From Alphaproteobacteria bacterium (GTDB lineage: Bacteria; Pseudomonadota; Alphaproteobacteria; Rs-D84), in contig JAVBPX010000001.1 in the NCBI GenBank assembly GCA_031549365.1, positions 96,001 through 160,000 on the forward strand: DNA of 64,000 nt, given 5' to 3'. The notes beneath the pieces were generated by a model. The model was not told the DNA's origin and ran no database searches. It was given only the letters and a program-made list of their open reading frames with translations. Of this stretch, positions 51,782 through 61,437 are shown one piece after another. Positions within the stretch are counted from its first letter, which is position 1; each line of letters starts with the position of its first letter. A program made the position numbers and the translations under genes.

Positions 51782-51873
51782 GGAGAGGTGGCAGAGCCCG
51801 GTTGAATGCGCTCGACTCGAAATCGAGTATACTGGCGACAGTATCGGGGGTTCGAATCCCCCCCTCTCCGCCA
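51782..51873 (+). tRNA. tRNA-Ser(CGA)
   Basis: GGAGAGG/CCTCTCC acceptor, CTCGA-CT-CGA-AA-TCGAG anticodon arm, long variable arm, TTCGAAT, G73-CCA. Confidence 0.96.
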
Positions 51874-53959: not shown

Positions 53960-54387
53960 AGAAATTATTAAAAAGATAAATTATCGTCTGGGTACAAATG
54001 CGGATAAAATAAAACTCATTGAAAAAAACTATAATCGTCCGAATATTGAAGAATATTTGCAAATGTTTTCAAAAAACATGGATGGAGTAGATGAGACCAG
54101 AATTGCCCACTTTTATTTGAAATATTGCGATTTCAAACATTCCAATGTACTGACGTGTTTAGAAGGACAAATACTTGATTTTCAGGTTGAACGCGTTATT
54201 ACAGTAATGGTTATGCTTGTTACATATTTGAGTATGGCAAAATTAGAGCCCTATGTACATCCTGTCGGTATTTAAATATCAATTATCCAGTAGGAAAATA
54301 CTATTATGGATCAATGCTGTTAGTGAGACTTTCTTGACTTTTTAACATTATAATAGTAGCATCCTTTGTGAGAAAAATGAGGTTTAA

Positions 54388-55980
54388 ATGTCGGATAACA
54401 ATGCCATTCATTGGGCGGATTTTATTGCAGAGCGAATAATTCGTGAAAAAGGCGATAAAGATTTATATACTTTGGCCAGCGGAATTACCCCGTCTGGGAC
54501 AATTCATATTGGAAAATTTCGCGAGATTATAACCACCGAATTGGTGTCCCGGGCGTTGGTTCGCATGGGGAAAAAGGTACGTTTTATTTATTCTTGGGAT
54601 GATTATGATACTTTTCGCAAAGTGCCGGGCGATATGCCACAGCAAGAGATGTTAAAAGAATTATTGTATCAGCCGATTGTCGATATTCCAGATGTTTACG
54701 GAACAGAAAGTTCTTATGCTCGGCATAACGAAGTGTCGTTGGAACGTATTGCTCCGGTATTGGGCATAACAAATATTGAATTTATTTATCAAAGTCGGAT
54801 GTATCGTAGTGGCGAATATAATGATTTGATTATAAAGGTTATGGATTCGCGAGATAAAATTCGTGATATTTTACAGACATCTAAAAGCCAGGGGATGGAT
54901 GAAGAGTTTTATCCTATTGCAACTTATTGCAGCAATTGCAATCGTGACCGAATTGTTTTTTCAAATTATAATACATCAGATAAAACAGTTGATTATAAGT
55001 GTAAGTTATGCAACCACACGGAAAAGTTAAATTTACGCGATTCAAGGCGGCTGAAATTGCCTTGGCGAATTGATTGGCCAATGCGTTGGGCATTTGAAAA
55101 TGTTGATTTTGAACCAGGTGGGACAGATCATTCTTCGGCTGGGGGCAGTTTTGATACCAGCAAAGTAATCGTTAGTGAGATTTTTGGAGGGGCGTCTCCG
55201 GTTTATGCAAAATATGCATTTGTATTGCCAAAGGGTGAAAGCAAAAAGATGTCTTCGTCAATTGGTAACGGGTTTTCTGTGGAAAGCGTTTTGCAGGTTT
55301 ATGAACCAGAAATGATACGTTGGTTTTTTGCTTCGTATAAACCAGATGCGCAGTTCAGTATGGCTTTTGACATTGATGTTTTGAAGAATTACGAAGCATT
55401 TGACCGAATGGAACGCGTGGTTTATGGATTGGAAGATGTGAATGATGACAGGCGTGCAGTGCAGCGGCGTATTTATGAAATGTCTCAGATAAATTTTGAT
55501 GGAAAGATTCCGGAACAGATGCCTTTTCAGCCGAGTTTTAGGCACCTGTGTAATCAGTTGCAAATAAACGAATTTGATATCGAAAAAACCAGAGCATATT
55601 ACGCCCACCAAATCAAAAATGACATCGATGAACAACGGTATCAAGAAAGGTCCAAATGCGCAGTATTTTGGATACAAAATTGTGCTTCGGATGATTTCAA
55701 ACTTATATTGAATTCCGAAAAACGCAATGACATGACATTGTCGACAGATGAAAAAAAGTTCGTGAATGACTTGCACAAAATGTTGGAGATTGATTGGGAC
55801 AATTTAGATGACGAACGCGTCTTACAAAGTAAGGTCGGTGAATTAATTAAGGCCAACGGATTGGAAGTACTAAATGCGTATAAACTGTTATATCAGTTAC
55901 TGGTCAATCGGGACCAAGGACCAAAGCTGGCCGGATTTATTTTGGGTATTGGCAAGGATAAGATTCTGAATTTGTTGTAA
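54388..55980 (+). CDS. lysS: class I lysine--tRNA ligase (spirochaete-like)
   Basis: HWAD, ASGITPSGTIHIG, SWDDYD..RKVP, KLPWRIDWPMRW, KMSSS, GPKLAGFI. Confidence 0.93.
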   Translation: MSDNNAIHWADFIAERIIREKGDKDLYTLASGITPSGTIHIGKFREIITTELVSRALVRMGKKVRFIYSWDDYDTFRKVPGDMPQQEMLKELLYQPIVDIPDVYGTESSYARHNEVSLERIAPVLGITNIEFIYQSRMYRSGEYNDLIIKVMDSRDKIRDILQTSKSQGMDEEFYPIATYCSNCNRDRIVFSNYNTSDKTVDYKCKLCNHTEKLNLRDSRRLKLPWRIDWPMRWAFENVDFEPGGTDHSSAGGSFDTSKVIVSEIFGGASPVYAKYAFVLPKGESKKMSSSIGNGFSVESVLQVYEPEMIRWFFASYKPDAQFSMAFDIDVLKNYEAFDRMERVVYGLEDVNDDRRAVQRRIYEMSQINFDGKIPEQMPFQPSFRHLCNQLQINEFDIEKTRAYYAHQIKNDIDEQRYQERSKCAVFWIQNCASDDFKLILNSEKRNDMTLSTDEKKFVNDLHKMLEIDWDNLDDERVLQSKVGELIKANGLEVLNAYKLLYQLLVNRDQGPKLAGFILGIGKDKILNLL

Positions 55981-55984
55981 TTCA

Positions 55985-56749
55985 TTACCTTTCTTGTATG
56001 TGCTTTCCCATAATGCACTGGCGAGCGATGATTTTTTTGATGTTACTGCCGACAAGTTGCGATGTTAGAGGGCAATGATAGCTTTTTTTGAAATTTTCAG
56101 TGCATTGTTGTAAAGTTTCTGTAAAATTTGGTTTATAAAATTTTCCAATTTCTATACCCACAGGGGTGTTTTCAAGATTTCCCTTTGCTATTTCGTTATC
56201 AAAATTTTGTTTTGTAGTCGCAATTATATGTTTATTATCAGTGGTATGCAAGTGTGGTTCAGCCCTCTCCCATTGCGGTTGTGTAGATACAAATTTATCG
56301 GCCTCTTGCTTGTATGTTGAGTGTAATAGTGGACTATCTTTTAGTATTATTTTAGGTAAGTGCAACACCCATAAAATAATTCGAGCATATTGAAATTGCG
56401 ATAATATGCAATCAGTTAATACGCATGAAGAACTCATAATTGACGGTAGAGAATCTTTAATGTTATTTGCAATGTATATGAGATCTGAAAGGCATTCTTT
56501 GTCTAGGCAAAATCCAAGGTGGTCAAAATCCTTTTGAAGGTCGTAATGCAGTTTCTTCATGTATTCAAGAAATTTTTTTTCTTGTTCGTGGTTGGATTTT
56601 TTTAGTAATATAAAAGTGTCAACATCTGAATTTGTTTTATCTTCACCTCGAGCAGTTGAGCCACATATAAATGAAAACTCTAGATTGTCTCCGAATATCT
56701 CTCGGGTATCTAAGTCCAATTGTTTTATCTGTTTTTTTGTTATTTTCAT
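55985..56749 (-). CDS. Pol-beta-superfamily nucleotidyltransferase-domain protein
   Basis: FICGSTARGEDKTNSDVDTFI (hGS...DxD). Confidence 0.8.
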   Translation of the reverse strand: MKITKKQIKQLDLDTREIFGDNLEFSFICGSTARGEDKTNSDVDTFILLKKSNHEQEKKFLEYMKKLHYDLQKDFDHLGFCLDKECLSDLIYIANNIKDSLPSIMSSSCVLTDCILSQFQYARIILWVLHLPKIILKDSPLLHSTYKQEADKFVSTQPQWERAEPHLHTTDNKHIIATTKQNFDNEIAKGNLENTPVGIEIGKFYKPNFTETLQQCTENFKKSYHCPLTSQLVGSNIKKIIARQCIMGKHIQER

Positions 56750-56771
56750 TATTATTTACCAGTTGCTGTTT

Positions 56772-58229
56772 TTATAAGTATCTTACGATTTCTCTCTGAG
56801 GTAGAATTGGTTGTGGAGTAAATATGCCTTTGTAATAGATTCCAGATGCATGCTTTCCTATACCGCCATATGGTTTGTATCCATGCTCGAAATTGTGTAG
56901 ATGGTCATTCACAAGTATAGAGTCCGGCATATGGATTTTTTCATCATAAAGTATGGCTATTGTTTCTTCTTTTAATTTTCCATAAACTGTCAAAAACATA
57001 GCTGATTCTTTATATTTTGTATTTTTGAAATAGTTTATAAGTTCATTTTCTGAATCATAAGGTTGTATAAAGAATATTGGACAGAACAATTCTTCGTAAT
57101 TAGCTCCTTCAGAGAGATCCTTTACTATTACCGTAGGATATATCATATTTTTTGAAGCGTCTATAAGACCTCCATAATAAATATTCTTCCGATTGTTATA
57201 AATTAGTTTTGCAGCATTTAATGCGTATCCATCTTTTGTATTAGGCATTATTATCGTGGATTTTTCAGGATTTGAATTACAGTTTTCATGAATTTCTTTT
57301 AATTTATTTATTAAAATTTCTTGAAAATCTGTTAAACAATCTCTTTTCACAAGTAATGCATTTGGGGCGGCACAGTCTTGTCCTTGGTTGTATGTTCCAA
57401 GCTCGATACATGCTTCGACGGCTTCTTTGATATTTGACCGAAGATTTATTATAACCGGGTTTTGTCCAGCACCACCAAAGAAACAATATAACTCTTTGTT
57501 ATACGATCTTTTTACTTTCTTCATGTTTTCATATGTACCTGTAAATATAAATGCCTTTATTTCATTTCGTGTAATATTGAGAAAATCCTCTCTTCCTCCA
57601 TAGAATATTTCTATATTTGGCATACTTGATAAATTTAACAATTTATCTAGCTCTTTAAAAACGTCTTGAGAATCATTTGGATATCTAACATATACTTTCT
57701 TACAAATATACGATGGAACAAGAGCAAAACAAACAAAGGAATACAGCAATTGGTTTAAAGGCATAAATGACGCGATTGGTGCTTTCTCTTTTAAAAAGTA
57801 TTCCTTATTTATGGTAAGATTTGTAAGAAGGTCTATTGATCTATCAATTTCATCACATATTGTATTATAGGTGGCATATGATGAAAGAGCTTTATAGATA
57901 TCTTCTCTGCGCTGATTTAATTGAAACGAAAAATTGAGCGCGTCTGTTAAAATTTTATCAAAGTCTAGATTATTTTCCACGTCTTTTTTAGAAATATTTG
58001 TTCTTTGTCCAAACCAAGAGCCAATTTCCTTTTTACTGAGTTTCTCTGTTTTTACTATAAGCCCTAAGTCATTTTTTTCATACTCCAGGCTGAGATTGTT
58101 AATATTGTGGAGTATATTATCTTTAGCTTTTGTATCCATCTCATCAAATTTGAGGATAAAAGTCAGCCCATTTTTATCTTGTAAAATGGTTCCAATAGGC
58201 TGTTTCTTTTTCCTTACTATGAAGTCCAT
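56772..58229 (-). CDS. aldehyde dehydrogenase-fold protein (atypical)
   Basis: PLNQ, FTGT, GGAGQNP, NQGQDC (catalytic Cys), EELFCP, PYGG; RBS AAGGAG. Confidence 0.85.
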   Translation of the reverse strand: MDFIVRKKKQPIGTILQDKNGLTFILKFDEMDTKAKDNILHNINNLSLEYEKNDLGLIVKTEKLSKKEIGSWFGQRTNISKKDVENNLDFDKILTDALNFSFQLNQRREDIYKALSSYATYNTICDEIDRSIDLLTNLTINKEYFLKEKAPIASFMPLNQLLYSFVCFALVPSYICKKVYVRYPNDSQDVFKELDKLLNLSSMPNIEIFYGGREDFLNITRNEIKAFIFTGTYENMKKVKRSYNKELYCFFGGAGQNPVIINLRSNIKEAVEACIELGTYNQGQDCAAPNALLVKRDCLTDFQEILINKLKEIHENCNSNPEKSTIIMPNTKDGYALNAAKLIYNNRKNIYYGGLIDASKNMIYPTVIVKDLSEGANYEELFCPIFFIQPYDSENELINYFKNTKYKESAMFLTVYGKLKEETIAILYDEKIHMPDSILVNDHLHNFEHGYKPYGGIGKHASGIYYKGIFTPQPILPQREIVRYL

Positions 58230-58260
58230 ATTTTCTCCTTGATTAATGTGGACCTTAAGT

Positions 58261-59760
58261 TTATCTCAACTTTATTTTTTTTAACATGGGAAATGTTAAA
58301 ACATCTCTGATATTAGATGAGTTTGTTAACATCATGGCGAGGCGATCTGCACCTATTCCCATGCCTCCTGTAGGGGGCATACCGTATTCTAAAGCTGTAA
58401 GAAAGGCTTCATCCATTTGCATTGCTTCAGGATCATCTGAAAGAGATGCTTGTTCTTCGAATTTTTTTCTTTGATCTATTGGATTTGATAATTCTGAGTA
58501 AGCTTCACCAAATTCAATGCCGCCAACATAGAGCATAAATCTTTCAGAAAGACGTGGGTTTTGTCGATGTATTTTTGTCAGCGGAGATATATCATATGGA
58601 ACATCCATTACGAAAGTTGGTTGAATAAGAGTTTTTTCGACTTTTTCTTCAAATATAGTTTCTACTACTTTACCCCAAGATTCAGTTCCCTTGAGTCGAA
58701 TTTTGTGTTTTTGGGCAATGCTATGAATTTCCCTATCGCTCATGTTTATAAGATCTTCGTTCAGCGCTTCTGATGCTGCGTCTACCATTGGTAATCTTTT
58801 AAATGGTTTTTCAAGGTCTATTAAGGCATCTTTCCAAGTAATGTGGAGAGAGCTGTTGACAGCCATAGATGAATCTCGCAGCAATCTTTCTGCGAGAATC
58901 ATCATGTCAAAATAGTCTTTATAAGAGCCATATATATCTAGCATTGTGAATTCTGGACTGTGGCGATTATCAATACCTTCATTGCGGAAATTTTTACCAA
59001 TTTCAAACACTCGAGGAATGCCTCCAACAATGAGCCGCTTTAGTTCAAGTTCAGATGCTATCCTGAGATAAAAATCGTCTTTAAGAGAATTATAATGTGT
59101 AGTAAATGGAGCAGCATTTGCACCGGCTTTTACTGGGTGAAGTATAGGTGTTTCTACCTCTATATATCCCTCATCGTGCATTACTTCGCGTATAGCATAC
59201 ATTGCTTTCGCCCTATTGAGAACAACATCCCGAGAGTTTTTGTTTACTATAAGATCTACGGATTTATTGCGGTATCTTTCTTCGGAGTCTGTTAGACCGT
59301 GGTATTTTTCAGGAAGAATATTCAATGATTTTGACAGCATTGTTACTTCCAGAGGAGTAACAGAAACTGCTCCTCGCAAAGTTTTTTTAATTCCTCCCAA
59401 AACACCAATTATATCACCAATGTCAAGATTTTTAAGCATGTTATTAAATTGTGTATCTGCTTTTGGATTTTCATTGCAAATTTGAATTTTTCCGGATTCA
59501 TCTTCAACATCGATGAACATTCCGGAATTTCGGATTGCCATAATTCTTCCTGCAATTTTTACAATGTCTTTTGTATCCGCTGTCTTTTCACCAGGTTGAA
59601 GGTGGCCAAATTCAGCTATTATATTACTGGCAAGATGCGTTGGTTTGTATATGTGTGGATATGCGTTTATTCCTTGAGATTCGATGTCTTTAAGTTTTTG
59701 AATCCTTATTTCTTTTAAAGAATTTATTGGTGTCTTATTATCTTTTTTTTGATTTTGCAT
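58261..59760 (-). CDS. lysS: class II lysine--tRNA ligase paralogue (full length, with OB-fold)
   Basis: AGRIMAIR, LPEKYHGL, EVETP, YLRIASEL, FRNEG..HSPEF, YGMPPTGGMGIGADRL. Confidence 0.92.
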   Translation of the reverse strand: MQNQKKDNKTPINSLKEIRIQKLKDIESQGINAYPHIYKPTHLASNIIAEFGHLQPGEKTADTKDIVKIAGRIMAIRNSGMFIDVEDESGKIQICNENPKADTQFNNMLKNLDIGDIIGVLGGIKKTLRGAVSVTPLEVTMLSKSLNILPEKYHGLTDSEERYRNKSVDLIVNKNSRDVVLNRAKAMYAIREVMHDEGYIEVETPILHPVKAGANAAPFTTHYNSLKDDFYLRIASELELKRLIVGGIPRVFEIGKNFRNEGIDNRHSPEFTMLDIYGSYKDYFDMMILAERLLRDSSMAVNSSLHITWKDALIDLEKPFKRLPMVDAASEALNEDLINMSDREIHSIAQKHKIRLKGTESWGKVVETIFEEKVEKTLIQPTFVMDVPYDISPLTKIHRQNPRLSERFMLYVGGIEFGEAYSELSNPIDQRKKFEEQASLSDDPEAMQMDEAFLTALEYGMPPTGGMGIGADRLAMMLTNSSNIRDVLTFPMLKKIKLR

Positions 59761-59782
59761 AGATATACCTTTTTATACTTTT

Positions 59783-59855
59783 TGGGGGGCGGTCCGGATT
59801 TGAACCGTACCTCTGAGGGAAAACTCAGCGTTCTGCCTAATTATACTACCCGCCC
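59783..59855 (-). tRNA. non-canonical tRNA-like gene (73 nt including CCA)
   Basis: GGGCGGGTAGTATAATTAGGCAGAACGCTGAGTTTTCCCTCAGAGGTACGGTTCAAATCCGGACCGCCCCCCA: acceptor GGGCGG/CCGCCC, D-loop GG, CTGAG/CTCAG arm with 6-nt loop, GGTTCAAATCC, CCA. Confidence 0.8.
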
Positions 59856-59938
59856 TATAATTGTGATGAAGTGATCCCATCAACTTATCATTGTTTATGT
59901 CAAAAGCAATTTAAATGTCAATAATTATTTTTTGTTAT

Positions 59939-61051
59939 TTATTTGTTATTTAATATAATTAATGGCACTTGCATTTCGGATGCTGTCCCGCCTGCATGTT
60001 CAGATGCTGGTGAGCCAAACTCTTCCCAAGCTTTTTGATTTTGATGCAATGATTTGTTTCCTATTCCAATTGCGACATAGTCCCCGATTGATTCATCTTC
60101 CAGCACTCTATTCTTGGCAGAATACCAGTGAAGGTAGTTTGTTTTAAAAGTTTCCTTATTGATCAGCAAAAAATCTTTCTCCGAAAATATTTCATAAAAT
60201 ATTCTTTCAAAGCTATTTTTAGCCTCTGGTTTTACGAAAAATTGTGTACAACGCGCCTCACATGAAATCGGCATTATCAGAGTGTCAGCAATACCCGTAA
60301 AATCTTCGATAAATAAGGGCAAAGTATCAATATGACCGTGATCAGCAGTTATGATGAATAATGTATCTGGGCAATTATTTTGCAAATTTATTATTGCATC
60401 TCGTATATTGCAGATACAATTTCTGGCTTCGCCAGACAAAATTCCGTGATCATGGTTAGTGCTATCTGGCTCCGGCCAATACGCGTATATGTAATTTTTA
60501 TTGGCATTTTTTGTATTTGCTATTTTTTCAATAGTTGAACACCATTTCTCAACTGTATTATGCTCTGGTGTAATAAACTGAGGCATAACCTCAAAAGCGC
60601 TCCATTCGGAAATATCATTGATTTGGTCAACAAGTAATGCTGGCATTTTTTCCAACGGAGGCTTCGTAAGATGAGATGATTCACCACTATAAAAGTCACA
60701 ATTAGTAAAATTTTCGACAATCTCTCCAGATTCTTTATAATATTGCGACCATCCCAATAACCCATGTGATACAGGCAACAGCCCCGTGCGCAAAGTTGTT
60801 GTGGCGGCAACCGTAGTAGAAGGAACTATTGTATCAATAGTATCATATTTGTTTTTATAAAAATAGTCTGTCACAGAATCGCTTAATACATCCAGCTGTT
60901 CTGTCCCCATTCCGTCTAGGACTATAAGAGCTATGTTTTTGTACACTTCCGATGACCACGAATTTATGATCATTGGATGCGACTCATAATTTGGACATAG
61001 TCCAACAATTTTTTGTATTGCAGATGTTATTGATGTTATATCGTATTTCAT
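59939..61051 (-). CDS. alkaline-phosphatase-superfamily nucleotide pyrophosphatase/phosphodiesterase
   Basis: LIVLDGMG, PSTT, EPDSTNHDHG, ITADHG, EHAG; probable start MKYDI. Confidence 0.85.
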   Translation of the reverse strand: MKYDITSITSAIQKIVGLCPNYESHPMIINSWSSEVYKNIALIVLDGMGTEQLDVLSDSVTDYFYKNKYDTIDTIVPSTTVAATTTLRTGLLPVSHGLLGWSQYYKESGEIVENFTNCDFYSGESSHLTKPPLEKMPALLVDQINDISEWSAFEVMPQFITPEHNTVEKWCSTIEKIANTKNANKNYIYAYWPEPDSTNHDHGILSGEARNCICNIRDAIINLQNNCPDTLFIITADHGHIDTLPLFIEDFTGIADTLIMPISCEARCTQFFVKPEAKNSFERIFYEIFSEKDFLLINKETFKTNYLHWYSAKNRVLEDESIGDYVAIGIGNKSLHQNQKAWEEFGSPASEHAGGTASEMQVPLIILNNK

Positions 61052-61183
61052 GAGGTACATATTAGCAATGACATATCTTGAAGTCAACCGCGTATTTGGT
61101 TGAAAGTTGAGCGGAATTCTAGTTTCGTGGGAATATTGGTTGTTTTTATGTTTTGGTAATGAATTTTCATTGTTATTTAAAAT

Positions 61184-61437
61184 AAATTCCCTGTTAGGGT
61201 TTTAGGGAATTTGGGGTGATGTGGGTAGTGGATGCCGCGGTGTGGTTGGGGTTGTGAATTTGGGACCAATTGGTAAAATGCGATTTTAGGGGCAAAACCA
61301 CAAAATTTCCCTGTAAATTCCCTGATGTTGTTTGTGTGATTAATTTTGCTGTGTGGAATCGCGTAACCTTGCGATGCACACATCAATTCCGTGCTAATAA
61401 CGCACGTCATTGTGTGTTTATATGCTCGGTTTCCCTG
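61184..61437. repeat. clustered (AAA)TTCCCTG motifs at the island right boundary
   Basis: AAATTCCCT(61184)-11 nt-AGGGAATTT(61212) inverted pair; direct copies at 61304, 61315 and 61431. Confidence 0.65.

Follow-up and report, generated by a model that had tools for sequence, protein, structure and literature searches.

A tRNA-Lys-like gene with a six-nucleotide anticodon loop heads an accessory LysRS/ALDH-like operon: a candidate amino-acid carrier outside translation

An aberrant tRNA-Lys-like gene, hereafter ODD, lies on the minus strand of an alphaproteobacterial genome of the lineage Rs-D84 (assembly GCA_031549365.1), at positions 59783..59855 of the window, that is, the whole stretch of 64,000 nucleotides analysed here (contig JAVBPX010000001.1, positions 96,001 to 160,000). 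On this strand ODD is followed, after 22 nt, by the genes for a second class II lysyl-tRNA synthetase (LysRS2′), for a protein related to aldehyde dehydrogenases (ALDH) and to LuxC, and for a Pol-beta-type nucleotidyltransferase. The reading that we favour, with a probability of roughly 0.45, is that ODD may be a private, translation-insulated tRNA-Lys-like carrier, serving a Lys-tRNA-dependent reductase pathway constituted by LysRS2′ and the ALDH/LuxC-like protein. Specifically, ODD would be co-transcribed with the cassette that it heads and used by it. LysRS2′ would charge ODD with lysine; the conserved cysteine of the ALDH/LuxC-like enzyme would then attack the lysyl ester, and the thioester would be reduced to an amino-aldehyde, following the logic of glutamyl-tRNA reductase and of LuxE/LuxC. 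The shortened loop devoid of a purine 37, together with a weakened stack of acceptor and T stems, would exclude ODD from ribosomal decoding and, as a consequence, the pathway would neither drain translational Lys-tRNA nor get mixed with it.

A sequence-only reading of this DNA had previously described a 73-nt tRNA-like gene with a 6-nt loop UUUUCC, mismatched stems and discriminator C, and every detail that it listed was found again by inspection of the sequence. ODD, the reverse complement of 59783-59855, measures 73 nt with its encoded CCA. Its acceptor stem is made of six Watson-Crick pairs (GGGCGG/CCGCCC), with G7 facing an A; the D stem GUAU/GAAC combines a G-C and a U-A pair with the appositions A.A and U.G; the anticodon stem (CUGAG/CUCAG) is perfect over 5 bp and encloses the 6-nt loop; the T stem, interrupted by an A.G mismatch, carries the T loop UUCAAAU, and the discriminator base is C. 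Overall, three mismatches are present in the helices and 18 of the 21 cloverleaf pairs are kept. In place of the canonical 7-nt anticodon loop, characterized by U33 and a purine at position 37, ODD has UUUUCC, with no purine at all, and the stack of acceptor and T stems comprises 11 layers, inclusive of the G7.A and A.G mismatches, versus the canonical 12 pairs (7+5). ARAGORN reports ODD as tRNA-???, with the two-base anticodon 'tt', an outcome that had been anticipated, and ODD is the sole undetermined tRNA among the 45 called by this program in the 911-kb, 15-contig genome.

The claim that the nucleotides of the tertiary fold are maintained is borne out as well, since ODD retains all of the 12 columns that are invariant across an alignment of 36 tRNAs, consisting of 34 resident tRNAs and two odd ones. 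The nucleotides linked to tertiary folding and processing that are present in ODD include U8, A14, G18 G19, G53, U54 U55 C56, C61 and CCA. The encoded CCA, which had been listed among the retained features, is no special signal, because it is invariant in all 34 aligned resident tRNAs and is therefore nothing peculiar to ODD. A tRNA covariance model built in this work (R1) assigns 46 bits to ODD, which is itself part of the training set of the model. The resident tRNAs closest to ODD are tRNA-Thr, with 66% identity, and tRNA-Lys(UUU), with 65%, while unrelated resident pairs are on average 63% identical.

The correctness of the sequence was verified on assembled contigs from one study, rather than on raw reads. 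A contig from a DNA run, with a depth of 33 and probably from the source sample, spans 54300-61200 with 0 differences and 0 gaps, and a 218-nt contig from an RNA-library run, obtained from another sample of the same study, matches 59705-59922 with 0 differences. As both contigs are identical to the window at ODD, the 6-nt loop does not stem from a base wrongly lost or gained in the assembly, which answers the doubt that the first description had raised about the TTTT/CCC runs. Moreover, the RNA-library contig takes in the whole of ODD, 67 nt upstream of it and the first 56 nt of LysRS2′, which suggests that ODD is transcribed, bearing in mind that RNA libraries can contain DNA; contigs from these libraries cover the cassette in parts only, and gaps in their coverage carry no meaning. 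No terminator-like site was found between ODD and LysRS2′. Promoter-like sites provide no usable signal, 23 being present in the region versus 23.5 expected. One such match, ATCACA-16-TATAAT (10/12), is located at window positions 59840-59867 of the minus strand, with its -10 box within the D arm of ODD, the number of sites being that expected by chance.

The first protein gene of the operon, LysRS2′ (58261..59760, minus strand), encodes 499 aa with the Pfam domain tRNA-synt_2 (3e-81) and an OB-fold anticodon-binding domain. The protein is intact but divergent: it departs from the consensus at 19 of the 158 columns in which 116 other LysRS2 agree to at least 95%. Its closest relatives are 59-62% identical to it. 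Five of the 19 departures are common to its only close relatives; others are unique to LysRS2′, and three of these unique changes fall in the anticodon-binding domain. At the catalytic-core residues 223, 268, 275, 409 and 419, which are conserved to at least 95% in other class II LysRS, LysRS2′ and its three closest relatives show the replacements H to Y, N to S/L, E to D, E to M and N to E, respectively, which suggests that the active site may have been remodelled. The next gene (56772..58229, minus strand) codes for the ALDH/LuxC-like protein of 485 aa (Pfam Aldedh, 7.7e-19), a candidate Lys-tRNA (or Lys-AMP) reductase. It belongs to a family of distant ALDH relatives with no close solved structure; its catalytic cysteine is kept (NQGQDC), and the glutamate of the ELGGK motif aligns to a glycine. 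None of the open reading frames (ORFs) around ODD is frameshifted, all being readable in the standard code.

The bacterium possesses lysine components of its own apart from this operon. Canonical tRNA-Lys(UUU) and tRNA-Lys(CUU) are both encoded elsewhere in the genome, and a housekeeping class II LysRS, 47% identical to LysRS2′, is found on another contig (C5:19869-21332). This latter enzyme has orthologues with 70-76% identity in relatives; accordingly, it can be regarded as the vertically inherited copy and the cassette copies as extras. Altogether, three lysyl-tRNA synthetases, one of class I and two of class II, are encoded in 0.9 Mb. The GC content of the cassette is 30-37%, versus 38-41% for the contigs of the genome, and its ALDH-like protein was detected in 0 of 60 relatives. 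Judging from these sequence comparisons, the ODD operon is an imported or accessory cassette, at the borders of which neither flanking direct repeats nor tRNA fragments marking an integration site were seen.

To place the ALDH/LuxC-like protein in a wider context, its family was surveyed at 160 loci from other organisms, 80 from species genomes and 80 from metagenomes. A database search with the protein had returned 77 relatives, many of them of about 600 aa and labelled by the source as class I LysRS. In 135 of the 160 loci the family member is joined to, or neighbours, a LysRS (class I or class II) or the C-terminal domain of class I LysRS. In particular, this C-terminal domain is fused to the ALDH-like gene or immediately follows it in 74 loci, a class I LysRS gene is located within 3 kb in 54, a class II LysRS gene within the same distance in 5, and combinations of these linkages occur in 2; the remaining 25 loci show no LysRS linkage, and 15 of them break off at 500 nt or less from the ALDH-like match. 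Fusions in a single ORF are also found, namely an ALDH-LysRS2 protein of 936 aa in Aliiroseovarius (L072:7920-10730), LysRS1-ALDH proteins of 962 and 984 aa in Photorhabdus and Pseudomonas (L015:6372-9260 and L020:6276-9230) and an ALDH-LysRS1 protein of 1042 aa on a code-25 contig (L181:4725-7853). Downstream of the Pseudomonas fusion lies a gene for an MFS transporter. Another domain arrangement noticed in the survey is a class II LysRS with a C-terminal DUF2000 domain, encoded at L005:5751-7718 (minus strand), where it adjoins the ALDH-like gene of genome G061, and found also in the proteins P0146, P0171 and P0182.

The connection with LysRS extends to the long forms of the family. In the ~600-aa proteins, the final stretch of ~103 residues shares homology with the C-terminus of class I LysRS, as revealed by hhalign (probability 98.9%, E = 1e-17) with profiles of 22 candidate-phyla proteins of about 600 aa and of 8 class I LysRS; Pfam misses this domain. 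The C-terminus of class I LysRS is presumably part of the tRNA-binding end of the enzyme. Since the two unrelated partners, LysRS of class I and of class II, share their product, the simplest reading is that the ALDH-like enzyme acts on lysyl-tRNA, which it would reduce to an aldehyde; lysyl-adenylate would be a less likely substrate. No literature on a LysRS-ALDH system or on a lysyl-tRNA reductase was found, including in two reviews, one dealing with aminoacyl-tRNA-dependent enzymes and the other with paralogues of aminoacyl-tRNA synthetases.

The tRNA genes that accompany the family were sought with a general covariance model built from the resident tRNAs, which replaced ARAGORN at 85% thresholds, as this had given 283 calls, mostly spurious. 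The model detected 21 tRNAs, 12 of them at the genome loci and 9 at the metagenome loci. Five of the 21, of which 20 could be typed, are tRNA-Lys, whereas chance would give about one (binomial p = 0.002 at a rate of 2/45 and 0.01 at 3/46, some of the loci being interdependent). L181, L151 and L200 contain three of the five, all canonical in appearance. The other two, at L005, in genome G061, and on the metagenome contig L129, are tRNA-Lys(CUU) with a U at position 37 and obtain 48.1 and 49.4 bits, respectively, in Rfam. A search of 150 relatives of the L005 genome yielded one further U37 tRNA-Lys(CUU), in genome G570 (L260:1379-1457); its loop, UCCUUUA, has C33 in addition to U37 and thus lacks the near-universal U33, and the gene is preceded by a TTGACA-17-TACTAT promoter.

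The purine at position 37 is present in nearly all tRNAs and, in tRNA-Lys, this position carries t6A, which is needed for decoding; all 34 aligned resident tRNAs have a purine there. A pyrimidine 37 fits an RNA that is charged yet not meant for decoding. The U37 tRNAs of L005, L260 and L129 have regular 7-nt loops (UUCUUUA, UCCUUUA and CUCUUUA) and A73, and each lies directly upstream of an ALDH-like ORF on the same strand, at a distance of about 25 nt in L005, 22 nt in G570 and 50 nt in L129. G061 and G570 each carry canonical tRNA-Lys(CUU) and tRNA-Lys(UUU) as well, so that in these genomes the U37 tRNA-Lys are third, extra genes. When the 21 cloverleaf pairs of the three RNAs are compared, 11 are invariant, 6 show compensatory double changes and 4 one-sided changes, with pair 27-43 alone being unpaired. 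The compensatory changes indicate that these RNAs are under selection. In addition, the cloverleaves of the L005 and L260 tRNAs are 3.0-3.6 kcal/mol from the minimum free energy (MFE) structure. ODD has in common with the U37 family the location directly upstream of the first ORF of an operon on the same strand, the status of an extra lysine-type tRNA and the absence of purine 37.

In the light of these observations, a broader proposal can be formulated, which we consider possible but doubtful. The ALDH/LuxC-like family might constitute a lysyl-tRNA reductase that is widespread but so far undescribed. It would follow HemA as the second enzyme known to reduce an aminoacyl-tRNA, would have a different fold, and would use tRNA as an acyl carrier to deliver a lysine-derived amino-aldehyde. 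Some lineages would have evolved private non-decoding tRNA-Lys carriers, represented by the U37 variants (one with C33) of L005, L260 and L129, two of which come from genomes or contigs of Saccharibacteria type, and by ODD as an extreme form with a 6-nt loop and its own LysRS paralogue; the carriers would separate the pathway from translation.

A number of results weigh against the carrier reading of ODD. The Rfam tRNA model RF00005 gives ODD 28.6 bits (E = 0.00055 in a 451-nt search); ODD is not listed in the whole-window Rfam scan at the gathering threshold because this score is just under the gathering score of 29. The best cloverleaf has a free energy of -16.7 kcal/mol versus an MFE of -25.0, reached in a different acceptor register, a gap of 8.3 kcal/mol; the ensemble probability of the cloverleaf acceptor pairs is about 0 and the folding z-score of the whole sequence is just -1.7. 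The discriminator is C instead of A73, which both normal tRNA-Lys of the genome carry. In PMC9976931, lysine identity is assigned to the anticodon (U35, U36) and to A73, any other base 73 reducing charging by class II LysRS. The UUUU of ODD could offer U35 and U36, but position numbering is undefined in a 6-nt loop. ODD is, furthermore, a single case: its DNA was absent from all 60 relatives searched, none of 400 genomes of the class contains a close LysRS2′ (E <= 1e-160), and viral contigs scanned with LysRS2′ and with the ALDH-like alignment contained no relatives. ODD also lacks the CUUUA loop motif, the A73 and the sound cloverleaf of the U37 family, to which it is tied, as far as the sequences tell, by position and by the missing purine 37 and not by homology. 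As for the enzymes, the ALDH-linked LysRS2 of G061 is the only LysRS2 of that genome and in G570 no LysRS lies within 7 kb; hence, a dedicated synthetase is not a general feature. Finally, the processing and charging of ODD are presumed steps, and the proposed chemistry derives from family resemblance only.

Several of these points are in line with ODD being a decaying relic, an explanation that we judge unlikely, though it is the most serious rival. The cassette would have arrived with a functional tRNA-Lys, similar to those that accompany ALDH-like genes at other loci, which, being redundant beside the host set, is degenerating by loss of one base from the loop, three mismatches and C73. The mismatches and the 6-nt loop themselves, the negligible ensemble probability of a cloverleaf so far above the MFE, the Rfam score below threshold and the departure from the identity rule of PMC9976931 all agree with decay, and no homologue was found that would give a sign of purifying selection. 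Besides, with five tRNA-Lys in 160 loci, most of which have no adjacent tRNA, the enzyme evidently manages with resident tRNA-Lys or without a dedicated one. Decay does not easily explain why ODD keeps all 12 invariant tRNA columns, a flawless anticodon stem and, in total, 18 of 21 cloverleaf pairs, while being at most 66% identical to any resident tRNA, nor why it persists at a tight 22-nt junction in a compact operon of a 0.9-Mb genome; analogous U37 tRNAs elsewhere are clearly under selection. The earlier assertion that ODD fits a non-ribosomal carrier better than random decay can be upheld in part: the operon context, the links of the ALDH-like family with LysRS and tRNA-Lys and the U37 tRNAs speak for a carrier, but superiority over decay is not borne out for ODD itself, which has no homologue, no CUUUA motif, no A73 and a cloverleaf 8.3 kcal/mol from the MFE.

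An improbable alternative is that ODD works in cis, as a mimic of tRNA within the leader of the mRNA. It would be bound near the ribosome-binding site by LysRS2′ or by the ALDH-like protein, in an auto-regulation similar to that of the thrS operator, or ODD would be an RNase P/3′-end processing site that sets the 5′ end of the mRNA. In all four cases, in fact, the special tRNA is directly upstream of the first ORF on the same strand (22, ~25, ~22 and ~50 nt), and for ODD one RNA-library contig joins it to the first 56 nt of LysRS2′, with no terminator-like site in between. Nevertheless, tRNA genes co-transcribed with protein genes are common and this arrangement by itself implies no regulation; moreover, a full cloverleaf, a T loop and an encoded CCA/ACCA end exceed the needs of a mimic of the anticodon arm, and no T-box or other Rfam regulatory family is matched in the window. 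Far less probable still is a working decoder with an unusual loop, acting by doublet reading, by frameshifting or through an 8-nt loop formed by opening of the G-C closing pair. The two-base anticodon reported by ARAGORN, and a U-run able to pair with A-rich lysine codons, would suit such a function; opposed to it are the 6-nt loop with no purine 37, the cost of the 8-nt-loop form (-11.3 versus -14.0 kcal/mol for the matching 6/5 cloverleaf, that is, 2.7 kcal/mol more), the canonical tRNA-Lys(UUU) and tRNA-Lys(CUU) of the genome and the neighbouring ORFs, all in standard code with no frameshifts. The least credible explanation is an assembly or sequencing artefact concealing a true loop of 7 nt: the loop does border homopolymer runs, but the depth-33 DNA contig and the RNA-library contig from another sample agree with no difference or gap, and one extra U or C would still leave no purine 37. 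A small share of the probability is given to none of these readings.

Returning to the carrier reading, the chemistry that it entails has known counterparts. In HemA, an active-site cysteine attacks the ester of the aminoacyl-tRNA and NADPH reduces the thioester to an amino-aldehyde. HemA thus provides the model for the proposed reaction, but it has a different fold and uses an ordinary tRNA-Glu, whereas the enzyme of the cassette belongs to the ALDH superfamily. In LuxC/LuxE systems, an adenylating enzyme passes an activated acyl group to the cysteine of an ALDH-like reductase, which releases the aldehyde. Similarity to LuxC is seen in the weak Pfam LuxC matches of several homologues of the ALDH-like protein and in the replacement, in the cassette protein, of the hydrolytic general-base glutamate of ELGGK by glycine. 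Unlike in LuxC/LuxE, the activating role falls to a LysRS, of class I or of class II; this partner, together with the presumably tRNA-binding LysRS domain fused to many members of the ALDH-like family, points to a tRNA ester rather than to an acyl-protein intermediate.

As regards tRNAs withdrawn from translation, staphylococcal tRNA-Gly genes include extra isoacceptors that are charged by the normal synthetase and diverted from the ribosome to a non-ribosomal enzyme; they have a 7-nt loop and a regular cloverleaf and serve Fem transferases. ODD differs from them in its ALDH/LuxC-like partner and in its shortened loop. Such a non-proteinogenic tRNA-Gly, active in the synthesis of the peptidoglycan bridge, is named in PMC3399842. 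In LysX of Mycobacterium, a LysRS is fused to MprF, the non-ribosomal consumer of its Lys-tRNA (PMC9437257). That consumer is a lipid lysyl-transferase, unlike the ALDH-like family, and no dedicated tRNA is described for LysX. The nearest precedent is tRNA-Other of Bacillus cereus (PMC3399842, PMC2916919). This aberrant tRNA lies on acquired DNA, and its host encodes LysRS of both classes, which jointly lysylate it, though poorly; it is absent from polysomes and acts outside translation. Likewise, ODD is an extra aberrant tRNA-like gene on acquired DNA with both LysRS classes encoded beside it. On the other hand, tRNA-Other has a Trp (CCA) anticodon and acts on the trpS1 T-box, and no ALDH-like partner is described for it; the loop of ODD is six bases long with a run of U, and the window contains no T-box match.

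ODD would fall among the non-translational tRNAs, a class already known, while the surrounding enzyme system may represent a new kind. To our knowledge, very few tRNAs are reserved for non-ribosomal work and none of them comes with a synthetase of its own plus a reductase. If the carrier reading is correct, the locus would represent a natural translation-insulated tRNA/synthetase pair, and aminoacyl-tRNA would gain a new role in small-molecule metabolism, that of an activated carrier. It would also offer a handle on an enzyme family that is fused to LysRS in Photorhabdus, Xenorhabdus, Pseudomonas, actinomycetes and many candidate-phyla bacteria and for which no published function was found. 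Even if ODD is decaying, the compensatory changes in the U37 tRNA-Lys beside the same enzyme make the question directly testable.

The surroundings of the ODD cassette complete the picture. A gene for a phosphodiesterase-like protein of the alkaline-phosphatase superfamily (59939..61087, minus strand; Pfam Phosphodiest, 1.5e-12) is located directly upstream of ODD and is possibly the first gene of the island; it was found in 0 of 40 relatives and has no homologue at the other ALDH-like loci. The last gene of the operon (55985..56749, minus strand) encodes the nucleotidyltransferase, of 254 aa (Pfam NTP_transf_2, Polbeta), homologues of which adjoin the ALDH-like gene in three unrelated loci (L003:9502-10143, L082:2400-2567 and L197:7963-8178). 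Look-ups in the ESM Atlas of these two proteins returned generic families only. At L003, two aminotransferases and a short-chain dehydrogenase are encoded nearby as well. Facing the operon is a convergent gene for a class I LysRS of 530 aa (54388..55980, plus strand; Pfam tRNA-synt_1f, 2e-114). Whether this gene belongs to the system is uncertain, because orthologues with 48-79% identity occur in 10 of 40 relatives that are devoid of the cassette; at other loci, a class I LysRS is the most frequent partner of the ALDH-like family. In three relatives nothing is shared around the class I LysRS gene beyond the gene itself. Relatives of the genera g13 and g20 have a class I LysRS, a strong class II match being mostly absent from them. 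Further away in the window, at 51782-51873, an ordinary tRNA-Ser(CGA) scores 57.7 bits in Rfam.

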